Shown piece by piece: positions 1 through 48,515 of a DNA stretch of 64,000 bases. The notes under the pieces are model-generated. The model made no database searches and was not told the origin of the DNA. It was given only the letters and a program-made list of their open reading frames with translations. The DNA is from an uncultured Candidatus Saccharibacteria bacterium (GTDB lineage: Bacteria; Patescibacteriota; Doudnabacteria; UBA920), in NCBI GenBank assembly GCA_964597895.1, contig CAZQZS010000001.1, positions 9,238 to 73,237 on the forward strand, given 5' to 3'. The first letter of the stretch is position 1; every line of letters starts with the position of its first letter. The position numbers and the translations under genes were made by a program.

Positions 1-284
<284 letters not shown>

Positions 285-1789: not shown

Positions 1790-2371
1790 CTATACTATGA
1801 ACAAGAATCCATAAATCACCATTCCAGTTATTAACAAAATTAACGTGAAAATAATCACAAGCCCAGCAGTGTCTAATAGTTTTTGCCTTTTTTGGAACTC
1901 AGTAAAACTTTGCCATGGTCTACTTTCCCAAACAATTTTTCGTCCCCAATTAACAGCTTTTAATCTTTGAAACCCGCCATATACCGGTATGAATTGTTTT
2001 AGACCTTCTCTGGTTAAACCGTTAGCGATGAAAAACCATACCCCAAAAACTCCCGCACCAATAGAGTTGCTTTTGATAAATTTTTCTTGATCTGAGGTGA
2101 GTTGTAAAGAGTTAACCTTTTTTATCCCAAGCTGTTCATCCGTGGTATTAAAAATCGGCCTATCATTTTCATCCTTACCCATATAAGGTTCTAGGAAAGG
2201 TAGCCCTTTAATTACTTTAAGGTATTTCAACAGTAAGAGTGTACAAAAAACTCCCAAACCCACTAAACCTATAGCTTGAATGTATTCTCTATGCATAAAT
2301 CCATAAATAGAACCCCAAATGGAAAATCCTATAAAAGTTAGCATGATAATTATCGTTTCTCTTTTGGTCAT
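1790..2371 (-). CDS. hypothetical polytopic membrane protein (193 aa)
   Basis: Several hydrophobic segments. Terminator hairpin CCCCtgaatGGGG+T5 downstream on the minus strand (~1694-1722). Confidence 0.5.
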   Translation of the reverse strand: MTKRETIIIMLTFIGFSIWGSIYGFMHREYIQAIGLVGLGVFCTLLLLKYLKVIKGLPFLEPYMGKDENDRPIFNTTDEQLGIKKVNSLQLTSDQEKFIKSNSIGAGVFGVWFFIANGLTREGLKQFIPVYGGFQRLKAVNWGRKIVWESRPWQSFTEFQKRQKLLDTAGLVIIFTLILLITGMVIYGFLFIV

Positions 2372-15002: not shown

Positions 15003-15027
15003 GATATACTACGCTTAAGGAGGGATT

Positions 15028-15336
15028 ATGGAGATTAGTGAAGACAGAGTAATCGAAATTATGCGCATCGGAGCTGAAGTTCCAAGTTTTCATTCAAATC
15101 TGGTCAAAATAGTTGAAACCAATCCCCAGTATTCTTTCATAGATGATTTAGGGGAAGCGGCTTTACCCGGCCTGCGAAAATTATTGGCCGAAGACTTCGA
15201 TGATCACTTGGTGGTTGTTTATCTTCTTGGTAAGCACGAATCCAATCAGCCTGATATTCCAGAAGAGAGTCGCGGGCGAGTGAAGCAGTTACGACAGATT
15301 TGGCTGGAGTTTTTCAGAGAAAAGAATTTTGTTTAA
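15028..15336 (+). CDS. hypothetical acidic protein (102 aa), first gene of a 3-gene small-protein operon
   Basis: AAGGAGGG RBS with an extended -10 upstream. No motif recognised. Confidence 0.5.
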   Translation: MEISEDRVIEIMRIGAEVPSFHSNLVKIVETNPQYSFIDDLGEAALPGLRKLLAEDFDDHLVVVYLLGKHESNQPDIPEESRGRVKQLRQIWLEFFREKNFV

Positions 15337-15348
15337 GTAGGAGGGCTT

Positions 15349-15576
15349 ATGCTTACAGAAAAGCAGATAGATAAAGCCGCAAAGTTGGAAGCCTTGACTA
15401 GTGGCTATCATCGCACTGGTTTAACTGCTAGCTGCGCGCCGCAAAGATGTCCGATAGTTGTGGCTAGTTCGGAGGAGGGCGAGAAGAAAACTGCAAAGGT
15501 GTCAATCAGTTTGGAAGAAAATCCTGTCACAGGAGAACGACGCCTTGTGCAAAAATATCGGAGGGAAGATGTATAG
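15349..15576 (+). CDS. hypothetical protein (75 aa)
   Basis: TAGGAGGG RBS. Contains a CAPQRC pair of cysteines. Confidence 0.45.
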   Translation: MLTEKQIDKAAKLEALTSGYHRTGLTASCAPQRCPIVVASSEEGEKKTAKVSISLEENPVTGERRLVQKYRREDV

Positions 15577-44091: not shown

Positions 44092-45315
44092 CTAACGCGG
44101 CGTGATCACATTTGTGATTGCGCCGATTTTATTTAAGATTTTTTGTTTCTCAAGTTCATTTGCCAATCTTGGCTGCCCATAATTTTCTATAATCACTGGG
44201 ATCAGCTCAATTTGTTTAAGAGTAGCTGGCTTTGGCGTGCCTTGCAACTCCGTTGTGCACACAAGATTGATTTGCTCGGTGCGAGACAACGGCGTGGGGG
44301 AGTTGGGATGAAGCCCAGGATGGCACAGTCCCGGCTTGGTTAATTTGATTTTTAACATTAATCCTTCGCGCGTGTCTTGGCTCCACATTTGGTCAAAAAC
44401 AAAATTTCCTAACGAGTAAAAAATTTGCTTGCCTTTATATTCTTCTATGGTTTGAATCCAGTGCGGATGGGAGCCAATCACTAGATCCGCACCATTGTCT
44501 ATGGCGGCTCGGGCAAAATTAGTCTGTTGATAATTTGGCTCGCGAATATATTCTGTTCCGGCATGCATTGTCACCACGATAAAATCGCTACGTTGCTTTA
44601 GAGACTGGATTGATGCTGCGAGCGCTTCTGTGTCTTTGATATTGGCAGTGTTTTGGCTATCCAGCGTTCCATCGGAATCTATCGCGCCATAAGTTGCGCC
44701 GATGAAACCGACGCGAGCTCCTTTGATAGAAAAGACTTGTCCCATCCAGGCTTCGGTTTGGTTTTCACCGGCCCCCACAGCAACAATTCCAACCTCTTGC
44801 AGTGCAGTTTTTGTGTAGCTTAATCCTGCTTTGCCTTGATTCAAAATATGGTTATTGGCCAAGTTTAATACTTTGAAATTATATTGGGCAAGGCCCGGAA
44901 GAGCCCAGGTAGGAGCGTTAAAAATAAAACCGCTCTCAAACAAGTATTGATCAGAACCGCTAAAGGGCGATTCTAAATTGCCAAAATTAAAATCAACATC
45001 CCAGCGCAGCTCGTTTTCTAGCGAACGGAAAGGCCAATAGGCGTCTTTTTGATTAGCATGCATCTTATTGGCAACTTCTCGTGAAAGCATGATATCTCCT
45101 ACGGCATTGAATGTGACTTCTGTGTCAATATTTTCTAGGCTGCCTTGCTGGTCAAGAGTCCATTGGTAGTATTCTTCCAAAGAGCCACTGGAAACCCCGC
45201 CGTAGAGAGGCGATGATGTGGCTGTTGGGTTTAGTATTTGCACAGATAAAATTGCTGCAGCCGATAAGCCGAAGATTGCTACAGCGCCGATAAAAATTTT
45301 GGGATAAAAGTTCAT
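44092..45315 (-). CDS. CapA/PgsA-family metallophosphatase (poly-gamma-glutamate synthesis-type)
   Basis: N-terminal anchor, and the VGDIMLSREV and NLANNH(I)LN metallophosphoesterase motifs of the PGA_cap family. Confidence 0.7.
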   Translation of the reverse strand: MNFYPKIFIGAVAIFGLSAAAILSVQILNPTATSSPLYGGVSSGSLEEYYQWTLDQQGSLENIDTEVTFNAVGDIMLSREVANKMHANQKDAYWPFRSLENELRWDVDFNFGNLESPFSGSDQYLFESGFIFNAPTWALPGLAQYNFKVLNLANNHILNQGKAGLSYTKTALQEVGIVAVGAGENQTEAWMGQVFSIKGARVGFIGATYGAIDSDGTLDSQNTANIKDTEALAASIQSLKQRSDFIVVTMHAGTEYIREPNYQQTNFARAAIDNGADLVIGSHPHWIQTIEEYKGKQIFYSLGNFVFDQMWSQDTREGLMLKIKLTKPGLCHPGLHPNSPTPLSRTEQINLVCTTELQGTPKPATLKQIELIPVIIENYGQPRLANELEKQKILNKIGAITNVITPR

Positions 45316-46430
45316 GAGATAATTTGATAAAACTGGGGGTGGATTTGCGTTATTTTGGCTTTGAGTTCCAAAGTGCTTAAAGCAGATTGAAGTTCAGTGG
45401 TGCTTAGCTGGGTTGCCTCTAGAAGCTGTTCAAAGCTTTGCTGTTCAGTTTGCATATATTTTAACACAGACTGCTCAACGGCACTGAACTCAGCTCTATT
45501 ATTGCTCGGCTTAGGCTCTATGCCGAGCTCCTCTAAAATCACAGAGCTGTCGGTGGTTATGGTCGCGCCATTATAAATTAAAAGGTGGGTGCCGCTGCTT
45601 TGCAAAGAAAATATTGACCCAGGTACTGCCAGAACTTGCCGGTTGTATTCTAATGCCAAATCAGCGGTGATTAATGCGCCGCTCTTCTGTGCTGCTTCGG
45701 CAATTAGTACGACCTTGCTTAAGCCAGCAATGATTCTGTTGCGGGCTACAAAGTGAAATTTTTGCGGCGGCGTTCCTGGCGCGTACTCAGACAGTAGTAA
45801 TCCATTATTTTGTAGGATGTCCTGAGCGAGTCTAAAATTTTCCTTCGGAAAGATATTGTCGTCGTCTATGCCGCTGCCTAGTACAGCAATTGTGCTTAGG
45901 TTATTTTGCAGCGCGGCTTGGTGTGCCTCGGCGTCAATGCCATAGGCTAGTCCCGAGACTATGCAAGGCTCTGCACCAGACAATCCGCCAACTAGTTTTT
46001 GCACGGCCAACTTCCCGTAGCTTGTGGCGCGCCTGCTACCAACAATTGCAAGCGTGGTAGCGACTCTCAGTAGGTTAAGATTGCCGCGGCAATATATTAT
46101 CAACGGGGCATCAGGAATCTGTCTGAGTAGGACAGGGTAGCTATCGGACAAGCAATCAATGGCGGTGACTTGGAACCGTTTTAAAGTTTCCTCAAATTCT
46201 TTAATGGTATGCACTCGGCAGTTGTCAAGGAATTTCTGTGCTTGGCTGCGGTTAAGTCTAAGCTCTGCTGATATTTGCTGCGCACTTACTGCGTTTAAAG
46301 AACCCTCTCGTTCAGACAAAGACATTAAGGAATCTATTGTCGCCCTGCTGGGGTGTCCGATTGATAGAGATAATATATAGAGAAGATAGGTTTGCCTGTT
46401 CATAGCAATATTTTGGCAAACCTTGGTCAA
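45312..46430 (-). CDS. dprA: DNA-processing protein DprA (Smf)
   Basis: Rossmann-like DprA core (IVGSRRATSYG ... SGLAYGIDAEAH ... GALITA) plus a C-terminal winged-helix. The stop overlaps the capA ATG (ATGA). Confidence 0.8.
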   Translation of the reverse strand: MTKVCQNIAMNRQTYLLYILSLSIGHPSRATIDSLMSLSEREGSLNAVSAQQISAELRLNRSQAQKFLDNCRVHTIKEFEETLKRFQVTAIDCLSDSYPVLLRQIPDAPLIIYCRGNLNLLRVATTLAIVGSRRATSYGKLAVQKLVGGLSGAEPCIVSGLAYGIDAEAHQAALQNNLSTIAVLGSGIDDDNIFPKENFRLAQDILQNNGLLLSEYAPGTPPQKFHFVARNRIIAGLSKVVLIAEAAQKSGALITADLALEYNRQVLAVPGSIFSLQSSGTHLLIYNGATITTDSSVILEELGIEPKPSNNRAEFSAVEQSVLKYMQTEQQSFEQLLEATQLSTTELQSALSTLELKAKITQIHPQFYQIIS

Positions 46431-46476
46431 AATAGATTCAATTTTGGGTAATTTTTGCCTTAATTTCCTCTAAATA

Positions 46477-46505
46477 TTGACAAAACCACACTTTTAGGGT
46501 ATACT
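46477..46505 (+). promoter_or_regulatory. sigma70 promoter TTGACA-N17-TATACT (11/12 consensus) facing a 430-bp gene-free interval
   Basis: -35 at 46477-46482, -10 at 46500-46505. No plus-strand CDS follows before the terminator at 46913-46940. Confidence 0.6.
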
Positions 46506-46748
46506 TCCAGCACGAAAAGTTTTGATGATTTGTCTTCAGCACCCTACTTGTAAGTCGCGATAGCGGGGATCATCCCTCCTATTTCTCCGCCAGTAGCGGT
46601 TAAGTAGAGACTTCGCAGCGATTGCTGTGTGCCTCTCACTTGCAGGTGGGGTAGTGAAGATAAAAACTATCAAACCATCTTCTACTGTTTGTTCATGAGG
46701 CTTCGCCGCTTTGCGGCTGCAGATTCATTCTCAAACAGTAGCAGATGG

Positions 46749-46917
46749 TTTTTATCTTCTGGGGAGTGAGGGTTTTGGAATACAGTTTCGGAATAGCTTC
46801 CAGGTATCACTGTGCCTTTTATCTTCTGGGAAATATGGGTTTTGAAAATGCGGATGCAGATTGGTTCGTAAACAAAAGTAGGATTTTTATCTTCTGAGAG
46901 GATGGGAAAACTAAAAC
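46749..46917. repeat. three ~33-bp direct repeats (period ~68 bp) TTTTATCTTCTG[G/A]G...GGG[T/A]TTT[G/C][G/A]AA, plus an inverted partial copy GAAGATAAAAA at 46650-46662
   Basis: R1 46749-46780, R2 46816-46848, R3 46885-46917. First 12 nt identical, remainder degenerate. The repeats fall in different reading frames. Confidence 0.5.
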
Positions 46918-46940
46918 CGGCCTGGGCCGGTTTTAGTTTT
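46913..46940. terminator. bidirectional terminator AAAACCGGCC-tg-GGCCGGTTTT
   Basis: 10-bp perfect stem with A4/T4 flanks. Overlaps the pth stop. Confidence 0.7.
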
Positions 46941-47472
46941 GGAGGAATATTTCTATGAGCTTATTTGTTTCGGGAAAGATTCTTTCTTGTAAAGTTTTAA
47001 GTTCTTCATCGGTGAATCTTTGCAGAACGAATTCATCGGTTGGCAGCGGGGAGTCGGGCTCGCGGGATTCTACGCCAATGCGGATGCGCGCAAAGTCTTT
47101 GCTGCCCAATTCGTCAATGATATTCTGAACGCCGTTGTGGCCGGCGGCGCTGTTGCCGTGCGCTTCGCGCAGGGTTCCAAAAGGTAAATCTTTTTCGTCA
47201 TGAATTACTAATAAATCGTATTTGCAGTCAACTTTATAGAAGGAACTAATTTCCTTTACCACTTCGCCAGAGAGGTTCATAAAACTTTGCGGTTTGACTA
47301 AGAATATTTTTTCGCCCCCATTATGGTATTCGCAGATTTGCGCATCAAACTTGCTTTGGCAGGCGATCACATCCCGGTCTTTCATAAAATAATCCAAAGC
47401 CAAAAACCCCGCGTTGTGACGAGTGAACTCATATTTGTTTCCTGGGTTTCCTAAGCCTACGACGATTTTCAT
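46933..47472 (-). CDS. pth: peptidyl-tRNA hydrolase
   Basis: MKIVVGLGNPGNKYEFTRHNAGF is the signature Pth N-terminus (catalytic His). ATG at 47472; the ORF track extends 57 codons upstream. Confidence 0.88.
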   Translation of the reverse strand: MKIVVGLGNPGNKYEFTRHNAGFLALDYFMKDRDVIACQSKFDAQICEYHNGGEKIFLVKPQSFMNLSGEVVKEISSFYKVDCKYDLLVIHDEKDLPFGTLREAHGNSAAGHNGVQNIIDELGSKDFARIRIGVESREPDSPLPTDEFVLQRFTDEELKTLQERIFPETNKLIEIFLQN

Positions 47473-47544
47473 AGTGGTAGTATAGCAAATTTCTTGACAC
47501 GGGCTCGTATTCAAATAATAATGAAACAAATTAGAGGAGGTGTT

Positions 47545-48036
47545 ATGCATCCAGGTAAAACTGCACCGAGCGAGTACGTGAAGTTTGTCGATAAGATCGT
47601 GGTGTTCTATCTTGCCGAGGACATGGAAACATATCTCTGGCAATTAATCCCGCGAACCGAAATTGCGTATATCGACCGAGAGCGATACTTGTTTTACGTT
47701 AACTGGCCTTTGGACAATTATGTCCATGGCGGTTGGTGGGGCAAGAAAGTTAGCGAACGATTGATGTCCATTTACAATTCCGTCATCGGTTGGCTTGTGA
47801 GGGTAAGTAAGACTTATCATTTGCAAGCATGGAGTAGAGAACGTGCCGCGTGCGTCCGATCGATTCGTCGTCGACTACTTCGGTTGATAGGCCGTTATTC
47901 CAATGGTGCCATGATCACGCCGATTTTTCGCAAGTATCTCGACAGCTTCTTATCGGCCATTAGTCACAATGTTTCAGTGGTATTCCAAACAGCTTCTGAA
48001 CCGGAAATATTGCCTGATTCAGTCTTTGTTTGTTAA
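47545..48036 (+). CDS. hypothetical protein (163 aa)
   Basis: GGAGG RBS before the ATG at 47545. W-rich, no motif. Confidence 0.5.
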   Translation: MHPGKTAPSEYVKFVDKIVVFYLAEDMETYLWQLIPRTEIAYIDRERYLFYVNWPLDNYVHGGWWGKKVSERLMSIYNSVIGWLVRVSKTYHLQAWSRERAACVRSIRRRLLRLIGRYSNGAMITPIFRKYLDSFLSAISHNVSVVFQTASEPEILPDSVFVC

Positions 48037-48098: not shown

Positions 48099-48515
48099 AT
48101 GTTGAATGAACGAAGAAATATAGATATGGGTTCTGACATCTCCGATATGGTTGAGGGGATGAAGGATGAACATATTAACGAAAGCCAAGAGCATGTCCGC
48201 GAAGGGATTGACCAAGCCCGCGATCTTATTAATTCCGAAGTGCTAGATTTTAACACGAAGTTTCCAGTAATCGATATCACTAATCATGAACAGATGCTGG
48301 CAATCCAAGACTATATTATGGGAGTGTACAAGAATGATTCTGAGGCTGGTAGGGAGTTGTTAAAATTATTGAATGCTGAAACAGCTAGGCAGTTGCCGGC
48401 TGTGCAAAATCAAGAGCAAGTTGATTTCGTTAATCAAGTTGCTAGTCAGCTTGAAGGTATGACCGGTGAAGATCTGGATGCTGGTATAGAGAAGGCACGG
48501 AGCGCGCATTCTTAA
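48099..48515 (+). CDS. hypothetical acidic protein (up to 138 aa; start uncertain)
   Basis: Strongly acidic composition. No SD at any candidate start (48099, 48106 or 48126). Terminator follows. Confidence 0.4.
   Translation: MLNERRNIDMGSDISDMVEGMKDEHINESQEHVREGIDQARDLINSEVLDFNTKFPVIDITNHEQMLAIQDYIMGVYKNDSEAGRELLKLLNAETARQLPAVQNQEQVDFVNQVASQLEGMTGEDLDAGIEKARSAHS

Follow-up and report, generated by a model that had tools for sequence, protein, structure and literature searches.

The described RNAs that come functionally closest to the one reported here are the small regulatory RNAs (sRNAs) of Gram-positive bacteria that present C-rich loops: RsaE/RoxS (RF01820), the Rsa RNAs with a UCCC motif and the RNAIII hairpins of Staphylococcus, and the streptococcal csRNAs. 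We analyzed the gap of 502 nt that separates dprA (45312-46403, minus strand) from pth (46933-47472, minus strand) in the Patescibacteria contig CAZQZS010000001.1. The window is the whole 64-kb stretch that was analyzed, coordinates are positions within it, and L-numbers (L083 etc.) are labels of relatives' contigs. Like the Gram-positive sRNAs, the putative RNA of this gap has a stand-alone gene with its own sigma-70 promoter and predicted intrinsic terminator, and a C-rich hairpin loop (UCCCUCCU) complementary to the Shine-Dalgarno (SD) sequence; like RsaE-type sRNAs, it could act without Hfq. Unlike them, it matches none of these RNAs in sequence or structure, and it carries one invariant 14-nt loop on a three-way junction in place of several short C-rich loops. 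The GAUCA part of the 16S rRNA tail is found in this loop too, and the RNA occurs in a small Patescibacteria clade only.

The genomes of Patescibacteria (the Candidate Phyla Radiation, CPR) are tiny, and few regulators are known from them. In the literature searched we found no description of an sRNA for this group, and the full-text literature searched does not describe the RNA presented here. A well-supported sRNA family that extends from promoter to terminator offers a testable handle on post-transcriptional control in these uncultured bacteria. That the locus is the gene of a structured non-coding RNA appears very probable to us. A wider reading, in which a stand-alone structured sRNA gene has an anti-SD loop and a 3' part that represents a duplicated termination end, is the one we prefer, but we hold it tentatively and with somewhat less than even confidence.

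The RNA core and its conservation

The conserved part of the gap is a core of about 135 nt (Table 1). P1 and P2 make up a long closing stem, and the three-way junction on top of it gives off P3-P4 (46556-46598) and P5 (46606-46636). An equivalent RNA was found in 13 other Patescibacteria contigs, always in the gap between pth and dprA and on the strand opposite dprA. Including the window this amounts to 14 members, that is 13 distinct sequences and one near-identical strain (12 distinct sequences besides the window). This strain aside, the fetched relatives are contigs encoding a DprA that is 41-57% identical to the DprA of the window, and the core is still present at 41% identity. At the DNA level, identity to the window is 67-97% for the core, compared with 66-79% for pth and 60-66% for dprA, and the core exceeds the flanking genes in conservation in every comparison.

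The fold was derived by hand and equals the fold that RNAalifold predicted independently. A covariance model built on 11 sequences recovered all 14 members at 143-163 bits, compared with merely 23-36 bits for the reverse strand, and found one copy of the core in the window. In the covariance-model alignment of the 14 members, 97.6% of the cells form standard pairs, and compensatory double changes are present at 16 of the 47 pairs; the covariation score was attained by none of 500 shuffles. When the partners were slid by 1-3 columns, pairing fell to 35-50%. P4 alone covaries at five of its seven pairs, for example CGGGGA/UCUCCG versus UCAUAG/CUAUGA. The covariation in relatives that the original prediction had named as a check is therefore clearly present. 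The plus strand of the whole locus folds at -171.2 kcal/mol (z = -8.2 versus shuffles). Frequent G-U pairs in P2, which are tolerated on the plus strand only, together with the low reverse-strand score and the promoter in every member, indicate that the plus strand is the RNA strand.

The promoter, recognized as near-consensus in the original prediction, agrees with the consensus at 11 of 12 positions. Between 45000 and 48500 it is the joint best, together with one at 47494, and the pattern TTGACAAA-N15-GTAYAMT is legible upstream of the RNA in every member. Transcription is predicted to start at about A46512. Across the members, the leader ahead of P1 is about 10 to 100 nt long, with about 60-100 nt in L091 and L094-L097. 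The original prediction had also stated that the plus strand has no notable coding sequence, and indeed the open reading frames (ORFs) of 44-50 aa that exist there are not conserved. Its main proposal, a dedicated non-coding transcript, is strongly backed by the conserved promoter, the covarying RNA structure and the lack of a conserved frame, as far as sequence comparison can indicate.

The distribution of the family is narrow. At 80 DprA loci from other Patescibacteria, Firmicutes, Bacteroidota and others, neither nhmmer nor the covariance model detected a homologue. A DNA-pattern scan of metagenomes gave four loci only, all of them ordinary members, and added three further distinct members to the set. 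The 14-mer of the loop alone has more than 120 matches in viral contigs; according to the covariance model, the RNA is absent from the 80 viral loci that were listed and fetched for carrying it. Rfam 15 at gathering thresholds reported three tRNAs in the whole window and nothing else. With the cutoff relaxed to E<=10, the region 46350-47000 gave terminator-driven or miRNA/snoRNA noise of at most 24.6 bits, compared with thresholds of at least 45, and no match to CsrB, Rsm, CRISPR-DR or SSU rRNA. The core was unmatched in four relatives searched at E<=1, and ARAGORN found no tmRNA. We rate the RNA as a previously uncatalogued family of a known general kind that is confined to a small Patescibacteria clade. 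A divergent 5S, 6S, SRP or RNase P RNA was considered on structural grounds and rejected, as the RNA has no central bubble, GNRA-capped domain IV, P4, tRNA-like domain or Rfam match of these families.

Table 1. Positions of the RNA features in the window, with strand and remarks
Feature	Position	Strand	Remarks
Sigma-70-type promoter	46477..46505	+	-35 TTGACA 46477-46482, 17-nt spacer, -10 TATACT 46500-46505
Short 5' leader	46512..46528	+	length differs among relatives (alignments, sequences)
Conserved core, three-way-junction RNA, ~135 nt	46529..46664	+	covariance-model alignment, RNAalifold
P1	46529-46538 with 46655-46664	+	
P2	46541-46555 with 46638-46652	+	
P3	46556-46558 with 46596-46598	+	
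P4	46563-46569 with 46584-46590	+	
Invariant 14-nt sequence AUCAUCCCUCCUAU	46569..46582	+	identical in 14/14 members
J3/5 (GUUAAGU)	46599-46605	+	
P5	46606-46619 with 46624-46636	+	
Domain 2: long imperfect hairpin, then U-tract UUUUUAUCUUC	46656..46761	+	
Repeat copy 1: domain 2 U-tract and G-rich tail (UUUUAUCUUCUGGGGAGUGAGGGUUUUGGAA)	46750..46780	+	
Species-specific ~68-nt module: small hairpin and repeat copy 2 (46817-46847)	46786..46854	+	missing in L083
Orphan second copy of hairpin 3' arm (46849-46881), repeat copy 3 (46885-46899), tail GAGAGGAUGGGA	46849..46906	+	
Bidirectional intrinsic terminator AAAACUAAAACCGGCC-UG-GGCCGGUUUUAGUUUU	46907..46940	.	also in L083, L098, L099

Two details of the core region deserve mention. 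The internal loop between P3 and P4 (46559-46562 and 46591-46595; AGUA/GAN in the window) has an invariant G-A on its 5' side and an invariant U-A on its 3' side. It recalls motifs of the loop-E or sarcin-ricin type and may be a site of protein or tertiary contact. In L083, a 54-nt hairpin is inserted between promoter and P1 (L083:2814-2870, minus strand; about 46511 in the window).

The invariant loop and its possible partners

A46569 closes P4, and residues 46570-46583 form the apical loop, which is unpaired in the consensus fold. As expected for an sRNA with an anti-SD or C-rich loop, UCAUCCCUCCUAUU is single-stranded in a fold that is backed by covariation, and the RNA has its own promoter and predicted terminators. 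The loop sequence AUCAUCCCUCCUAU also resembles the 3' tail of 16S rRNA, which we take to read GAUCACCUCCUUA as at the E. coli end; the 16S rRNA gene of the organism itself lies outside the window. The loop can be read as (G)AUCA-UC-CCUCCU-AU, so that the GAUCA and CCUCCU blocks occur in the same order as in the tail, and both are single-stranded. It differs from the tail in being placed inside a hairpin and not at a free 3' end, in a 2-nt insertion (UC), and in flanking helices that are not h44/h45. A hairpin like h45 ahead of the loop was considered and discarded, because covariation pairs GUCGC with the distant GCGGU (GUCAC/GUGGU in L089).

In the reading that we prefer, transcription would proceed rightward from the conserved promoter, and the core would be the functional unit. 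The closing stem P1-P2 would bear the three-way junction, and the P3-P4 arm would display the unpaired C-rich 14-nt loop. This loop would then pair with GGAGG(G)-type ribosome-binding sites of mRNAs, so that their translation would be blocked or tuned. In this genome the RNA would act in trans, and where an accessory gene shares the transcript (L220, L093) it might also act in cis. Should the loop indeed compete with the 16S tail or mimic it, translation initiation would be tuned in an unusually direct manner.

Potential partners for such pairing are present. In the window, 19 ORFs are led by GGAGG, six of them by GGAGGG. The SD region of a SemiSWEET gene in L093 (AGGAGGGGUGAU) forms 12 contiguous pairs with the loop at -21.6 kcal/mol, compared with -10.7 +/- 2.5 kcal/mol for shuffles. 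In L220, the RNA and a downstream gene with the SD GGGAGGGG are not separated by a terminator.

Several observations weigh against the reading as a whole. No specific conserved target was found in the available sequence, and the best sites of the window, with 9-10 contiguous pairs, are ordinary SDs. The SDs of the genes downstream in L089, L090 and L221 (AGGAGGUG) fit the true 16S tail better than the loop. CCUCC suffices for generic SD pairing, which leaves the invariant AUCAU and UAU as well as the elaborate conserved junction unexplained. A pseudoknot between the loop and the G-rich tail of the 3' extension was tried and rejected, because duplex energies in the window, L083, L086 and L091 were no better than those of shuffles. 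Two points concern the 3' part. As a terminator, the long hairpin of domain 2 is unusual; it has an internal mismatch and a bulge that are conserved and hint at a role beyond termination. Moreover, a duplication of the hairpin 3' arm in the distant L093 hints that this duplication was perhaps selected rather than accidental. Taken by itself, anti-SD pairing of the loop is a possible mechanism that we nevertheless regard as rather doubtful.

Two other pairings of the loop were inspected. Pairing with GAUGAU in the leader of the window was rejected, as it is not kept in L083 (by eye). At 15015-15352, tandem ORFs (102 and 75 aa) have AGGAGGG-type SDs, which are the best matches to the loop complement in the window (9-10 contiguous pairs); these ORFs are candidate targets in the weakest sense.

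The excess invariance of loop and junction, together with the lack of a conserved target and of a conserved pseudoknot, makes a protein-binding mimic of the 16S 3' tail a serious rival. The loop (GAUCAUCCCUCCUAU) would then serve as decoy or regulator for a factor that reads GAUCACCUCC, and the junction would be its scaffold. Era binds GAUCACCUCC, and the candidates for the partner include the KH domain of Era, a 3'-end maturation nuclease, bS1 or bS21, IF3 and a MazF-type rRNA-cutting toxin. In agreement with this idea, all 14 nt of the loop are invariant, including the GAUCA-like and UAU positions that SD pairing can spare, while the closing helix covaries freely. The junction strands (UUAAGUAG) and the internal loop G34 A35 / U69 A70 are conserved, which is typical of protein or tertiary contacts, and in a single case (L097) a gene for a PemK/MazF-like toxin adjoins the RNA. 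However, none of the candidate partners is linked to the locus, which neighbors der, pth, dprA, a capA-like gene and topA. The UC insertion relative to the 16S tail and the helix before the loop, in which GUCGC pairs with a distant strand and which thus does not copy h45, also speak against mimicry. Altogether we consider such a mimic unlikely.

A related possibility is a clade-specific housekeeping RNA. It would hold a copy of the 16S tail (GAUCA...CCUCCU) on the three-way junction as a rigid scaffold, serving as a decoy that either competes for SDs genome-wide or titrates a factor or toxin that recognizes the 16S tail, and the covarying long hairpin would be a second, protein-binding domain. 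Under this decoy reading, if true, an RNA would control translation initiation globally in the ultra-small Patescibacteria, but we judge it decidedly unlikely.

Long hairpin, repeats and terminators

The original prediction had emphasized three direct repeats, and the core with its invariant loop was missing from it. The repeats turned out to be the least conserved part. They are best understood from what follows P1 in the relatives. In L088, L089, L090, L094, L095, L097 and L221, this is a short plain terminator hairpin with a U-tract of the UUUUAUUUU type directly after it; in L220, it is a hairpin and no U-tract. In a sub-clade consisting of the window, L083, L086, L091 and L093, the place is taken by a structure of about 95 nt, and the U-tract still follows. 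The long hairpin of the window (46656-46759, followed by UUUUUAUCUU) occupies the position homologous to that of the canonical terminators of L089, L090, L094, L095, L097 and L221.

The long hairpin had been noticed before, together with its enclosed GCCGC-UUU-GCGGC, which lies apically at 46705-46717. Its arms lie close to the positions given for the 20-bp stem then described: they are 46672-46698 / 46725-46751 (27 nt, 85% complementary) and are extended by 46656-46671 / 46744-46759. Of the 35 predicted pairs of domain 2, 15 have compensatory changes among four distinct sequences (window, L086, L091, L093). The base of domain 2 at 46656-46664 (GAAGAUAAA) is at the same time the 3' strand of P1. 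An inverted partial copy of the repeat, formerly placed at 46650-46662, is present at 46656-46666, where GAAGATAAAAA is complementary to all three repeat copies.

The window contains the repeat sequence TTTTATCTTCTGRG exactly three times, namely at 46750, 46817 and 46885 (spacing 67 and 68 nt), and at least three matches were obtained in none of 100 shuffles. The three copies reported earlier are thus real, with the first two coordinates off by 1 nt. The repeat length of 33 bp is about right for copies 1 and 2, which have 31 nt in common (84% identical), but not for copy 3, which shares only 15 nt with the others and then continues into a different G-rich tail. Another repeat, of 33 nt and 76% identity, stands ahead of copies 1 and 3 (46712-46744 and 46849-46881). 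The small hairpin of the middle module pairs ACAGU 46782-46786 with ACUGU 46809-46813 and GGAA 46790-46793 with UUCC 46798-46801.

Because a hairpin and UUUUAUYUU follow P1 in the relatives, the TTTTATCTTCTGRG repeat corresponds to the terminator U-tract and the start of the G-rich tail. The array of three repeats is limited to this species and the close strains L098 and L099. L083 has two copies and most relatives have a single terminator U-tract, so that copy number ranges from 1 to 3. Apart from lacking exactly the middle ~68 nt, the L083 RNA is near-identical to that of the window, and the break-points lie in GGGTTTTGRAA direct repeats. Strain L099 departs from the window only where the small hairpin of the middle module is unpaired. 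The window and L083 differ in the way that is typical of slippage or unequal recombination, with a tandem copy duplicated or deleted, and not of an ancient functional array. The arrangement of 3'-arm copy and repeat is shared by L083 and, with different sequence, by L093. Since L093 has its own duplicated 3' arm and U-tract, the duplication is either old or recurrent. We consider it likely that the repeats duplicate modules of the terminator end and have no ancient role in their own right.

In our preferred reading, the first terminator hairpin would have grown into the long covarying hairpin (46656-46761) in the sub-clade. Its U-tract and G-rich tail would have been duplicated in tandem, giving rise to the three TTTTATCTTCTGRG copies, and the 3' arm of the hairpin would also have been copied ahead of the third. 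The likely cause of the change in copy number (two in L083, three in the window) would be unequal recombination, and the array would end at a bidirectional terminator shared with pth. In short, the structure of the RNA is very well supported, the family is narrowly distributed and the repeats are ordinary duplication products. The lesson is that the conspicuous repeats are the evolutionarily labile part of the locus, and the plain-looking 5' segment is the conserved functional element.

The strong hairpin at the end of the locus, already recognized as a terminator in the original prediction, has arms of 16 nt (46907-46922 / 46925-46940) that are 100% complementary, with the stem CCGGCC/GGCCGG and then UUUUAGUUUU. 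The stop codon of pth (46933-46935, minus strand) lies inside this hairpin, which indicates a bidirectional terminator. A simple terminator scan did not report it; the probable reason is that pairing of the A/U-tract extends the stem, so that no T-run remains behind it. The 3' part as a whole resembles tandem and bidirectional terminators, in that each repeat is a U-tract (UUUUAUCUUC) where the relatives keep the terminator U-tract, and in that the last hairpin serves the sRNA and the convergent pth. Unlike in tandem terminators, the first hairpin spans about 95 nt and has conserved irregularities, and U-tracts 2 and 3 have no strong GC hairpin.

As regards their origin only, the repeats could also be scars left by elements that integrated and excised site-specifically at the 3' end of an RNA gene, as they occur at tRNA and tmRNA genes; each event would add a duplicate of the 3' arm and U-tract. 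In the window, L083 and L093, the duplication comprises exactly the 3' arm and U-tract, which form the 3' end of the gene, and the slot downstream is a hot spot for accessory genes in the relatives, both as integration would predict. Nevertheless, there is no integrase or element between or near the copies, the copies are just 67-68 nt apart, and the short direct repeats at the end-points of the L083/window difference fit slippage or unequal recombination. We therefore regard integration scars as improbable.

Some further observations concern the 3' part. Below the apical stem (46693-46704 and 46718-46730), the long hairpin contains an irregular motif composed of a C-G pair, a covarying Y-R pair, a U-C mismatch, a C-G pair and a bulged U. 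Judged by eye, this conserved motif is seemingly kept in the window, L086, L091 and L093 amid covarying helices. A pyrimidine-motif triple helix formed on P1 by the U-rich repeats was dismissed by sequence reasoning, as the repeats are antiparallel to the purine strand. The Logan contigs L081 and L082, which have an identical pth, stop 15-17 nt beyond pth, on the terminator side of the repeat region; short-read assembly may fail at the hairpin and repeats.

Downstream genes and neighborhood

In 7 of the 13 distinct members, no same-strand gene lies between the RNA and the convergent pth. The other six carry unrelated genes in this place. L093 has a SemiSWEET gene (1928-2060, minus strand; Pfam MtN3_slv, PQ-loop, 6.9e-08). 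A solitary gene for a PemK/MazF-like toxin (1.5e-12) is found directly 3' of the RNA in L097 (832-1300, minus strand), with no antitoxin ORF visible upstream of it. L089 (1748-2080), L090 (1441-2103) and L221 (1-260) encode a nameless family of small proteins behind a conserved two-hairpin leader with the SD AGGAGGUG. In L220 (1910-2206), a 98-aa protein would be co-transcribed with the sRNA, as no terminator lies in between. Pfam searches with the neighboring and downstream small proteins put a name to SemiSWEET and PemK only. These findings favor the view that the slot between the sRNA gene and the convergent pth is a hot spot for accessory-gene insertion in the relatives.

The downstream genes also bear on the possibility that the RNA is a riboswitch or another cis-acting leader, with the junction as aptamer, the 3' strand of P1 (GAAGAUAAA) switching between P1 and the U-tract, and read-through thereby controlled into a downstream gene that has since been lost here. 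The highly conserved junction and the hairpin with U-tract directly after P1 in most members would suit such a device. So would the complementarity of the P1 3' strand to the U-tract (about 8-12 bp in several members) and the same-strand genes downstream in 6 of the 13 distinct members, once (L220) without a terminator in between. However, the seven members without a downstream gene and the unrelated cargo of the other six (SemiSWEET, the PemK toxin, and two nameless families of small proteins) argue against a riboswitch or dedicated leader and for a stand-alone RNA gene. In addition, if the P1 3' strand paired with the U-tract, this would extend the terminator stem and not rival it, so that no antiterminator logic is evident; this helix shows no covariation, and Rfam gave no riboswitch match. 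A cis-acting leader thus appears very improbable.

We give almost no credence to the remaining explanations of the repeats that the original prediction had offered: a CRISPR-like array, a CsrB/RsmZ-like sponge for CsrA-type proteins, or DNA iterons. The three direct repeats with a regular period of about 67 nt do resemble these systems in their spacing, and AGGAUGG follows one of the copies, but the defining features that were looked for are absent. CRISPR arrays consist of at least three near-identical repeats of about 23-47 nt with unique spacers of similar length. Here, only 15 nt are shared by all copies, the "spacers" are mutually homologous (76%, 84%), no new "spacers" are found in the relatives, and copy number varies from 1 to 3. 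No cas gene was found among der, the two hypothetical genes, pth, dprA, the PGA_cap-family gene and topA in the window and the syntenic relatives; the rest of the window was not screened. A sponge is not supported by its binding motif either. GGA occurs 10 times compared with 7.0 +/- 2.3 in shuffles (137 of 1000 reached 10), ANGGA 0 times compared with 1.6, and within the repeat unit itself no GGA lies in a loop. Iterons are direct repeats of 17-22 bp at a replication origin beside a rep gene; the copies found here are spaced by 67-68 bp in a chromosomal housekeeping context, and selection acts at the level of RNA pairing. For CsrB, Rsm and CRISPR-DR, Rfam gave no match up to E 10.

That the locus instead encodes a small protein, for example in the 50-codon ORF 46745-46897 (the frame near 46743 that the original prediction had singled out as a potential refutation), is close to negligible: the ORF is shared by the window and the close strain L099, but no SD precedes it, it is reduced to 21, 22 and 11 codons of unrelated sequence in L083, L086 and L091, window and L083 differ by an indel of 68 nt, which is not divisible by 3, and in no frame is the core open across all members.

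The genes around the locus have the same order in all fetched relatives: der, one or more hypothetical genes, pth, the gap, dprA, a PGA_cap-family gene and topA. In the window, two hypothetical proteins of 163 aa (47545-48036, plus strand) and 138 aa (48099-48515, plus strand) separate pth from der. Their position is kept clade-wide, and neither has a Pfam match. Judged by its DprA, the organism belongs to the Patescibacteria. The best matches of the window DprA among species representatives are at most 49% identical, and a relative at 47% DprA identity carries the annotation Candidatus Doudnabacteria. The start of dprA is ambiguous (ATG 46403 or TTG 46430, with no SD ahead of either). The promoters of dprA and of the sRNA must be arranged back to back, about 70 nt apart at most.

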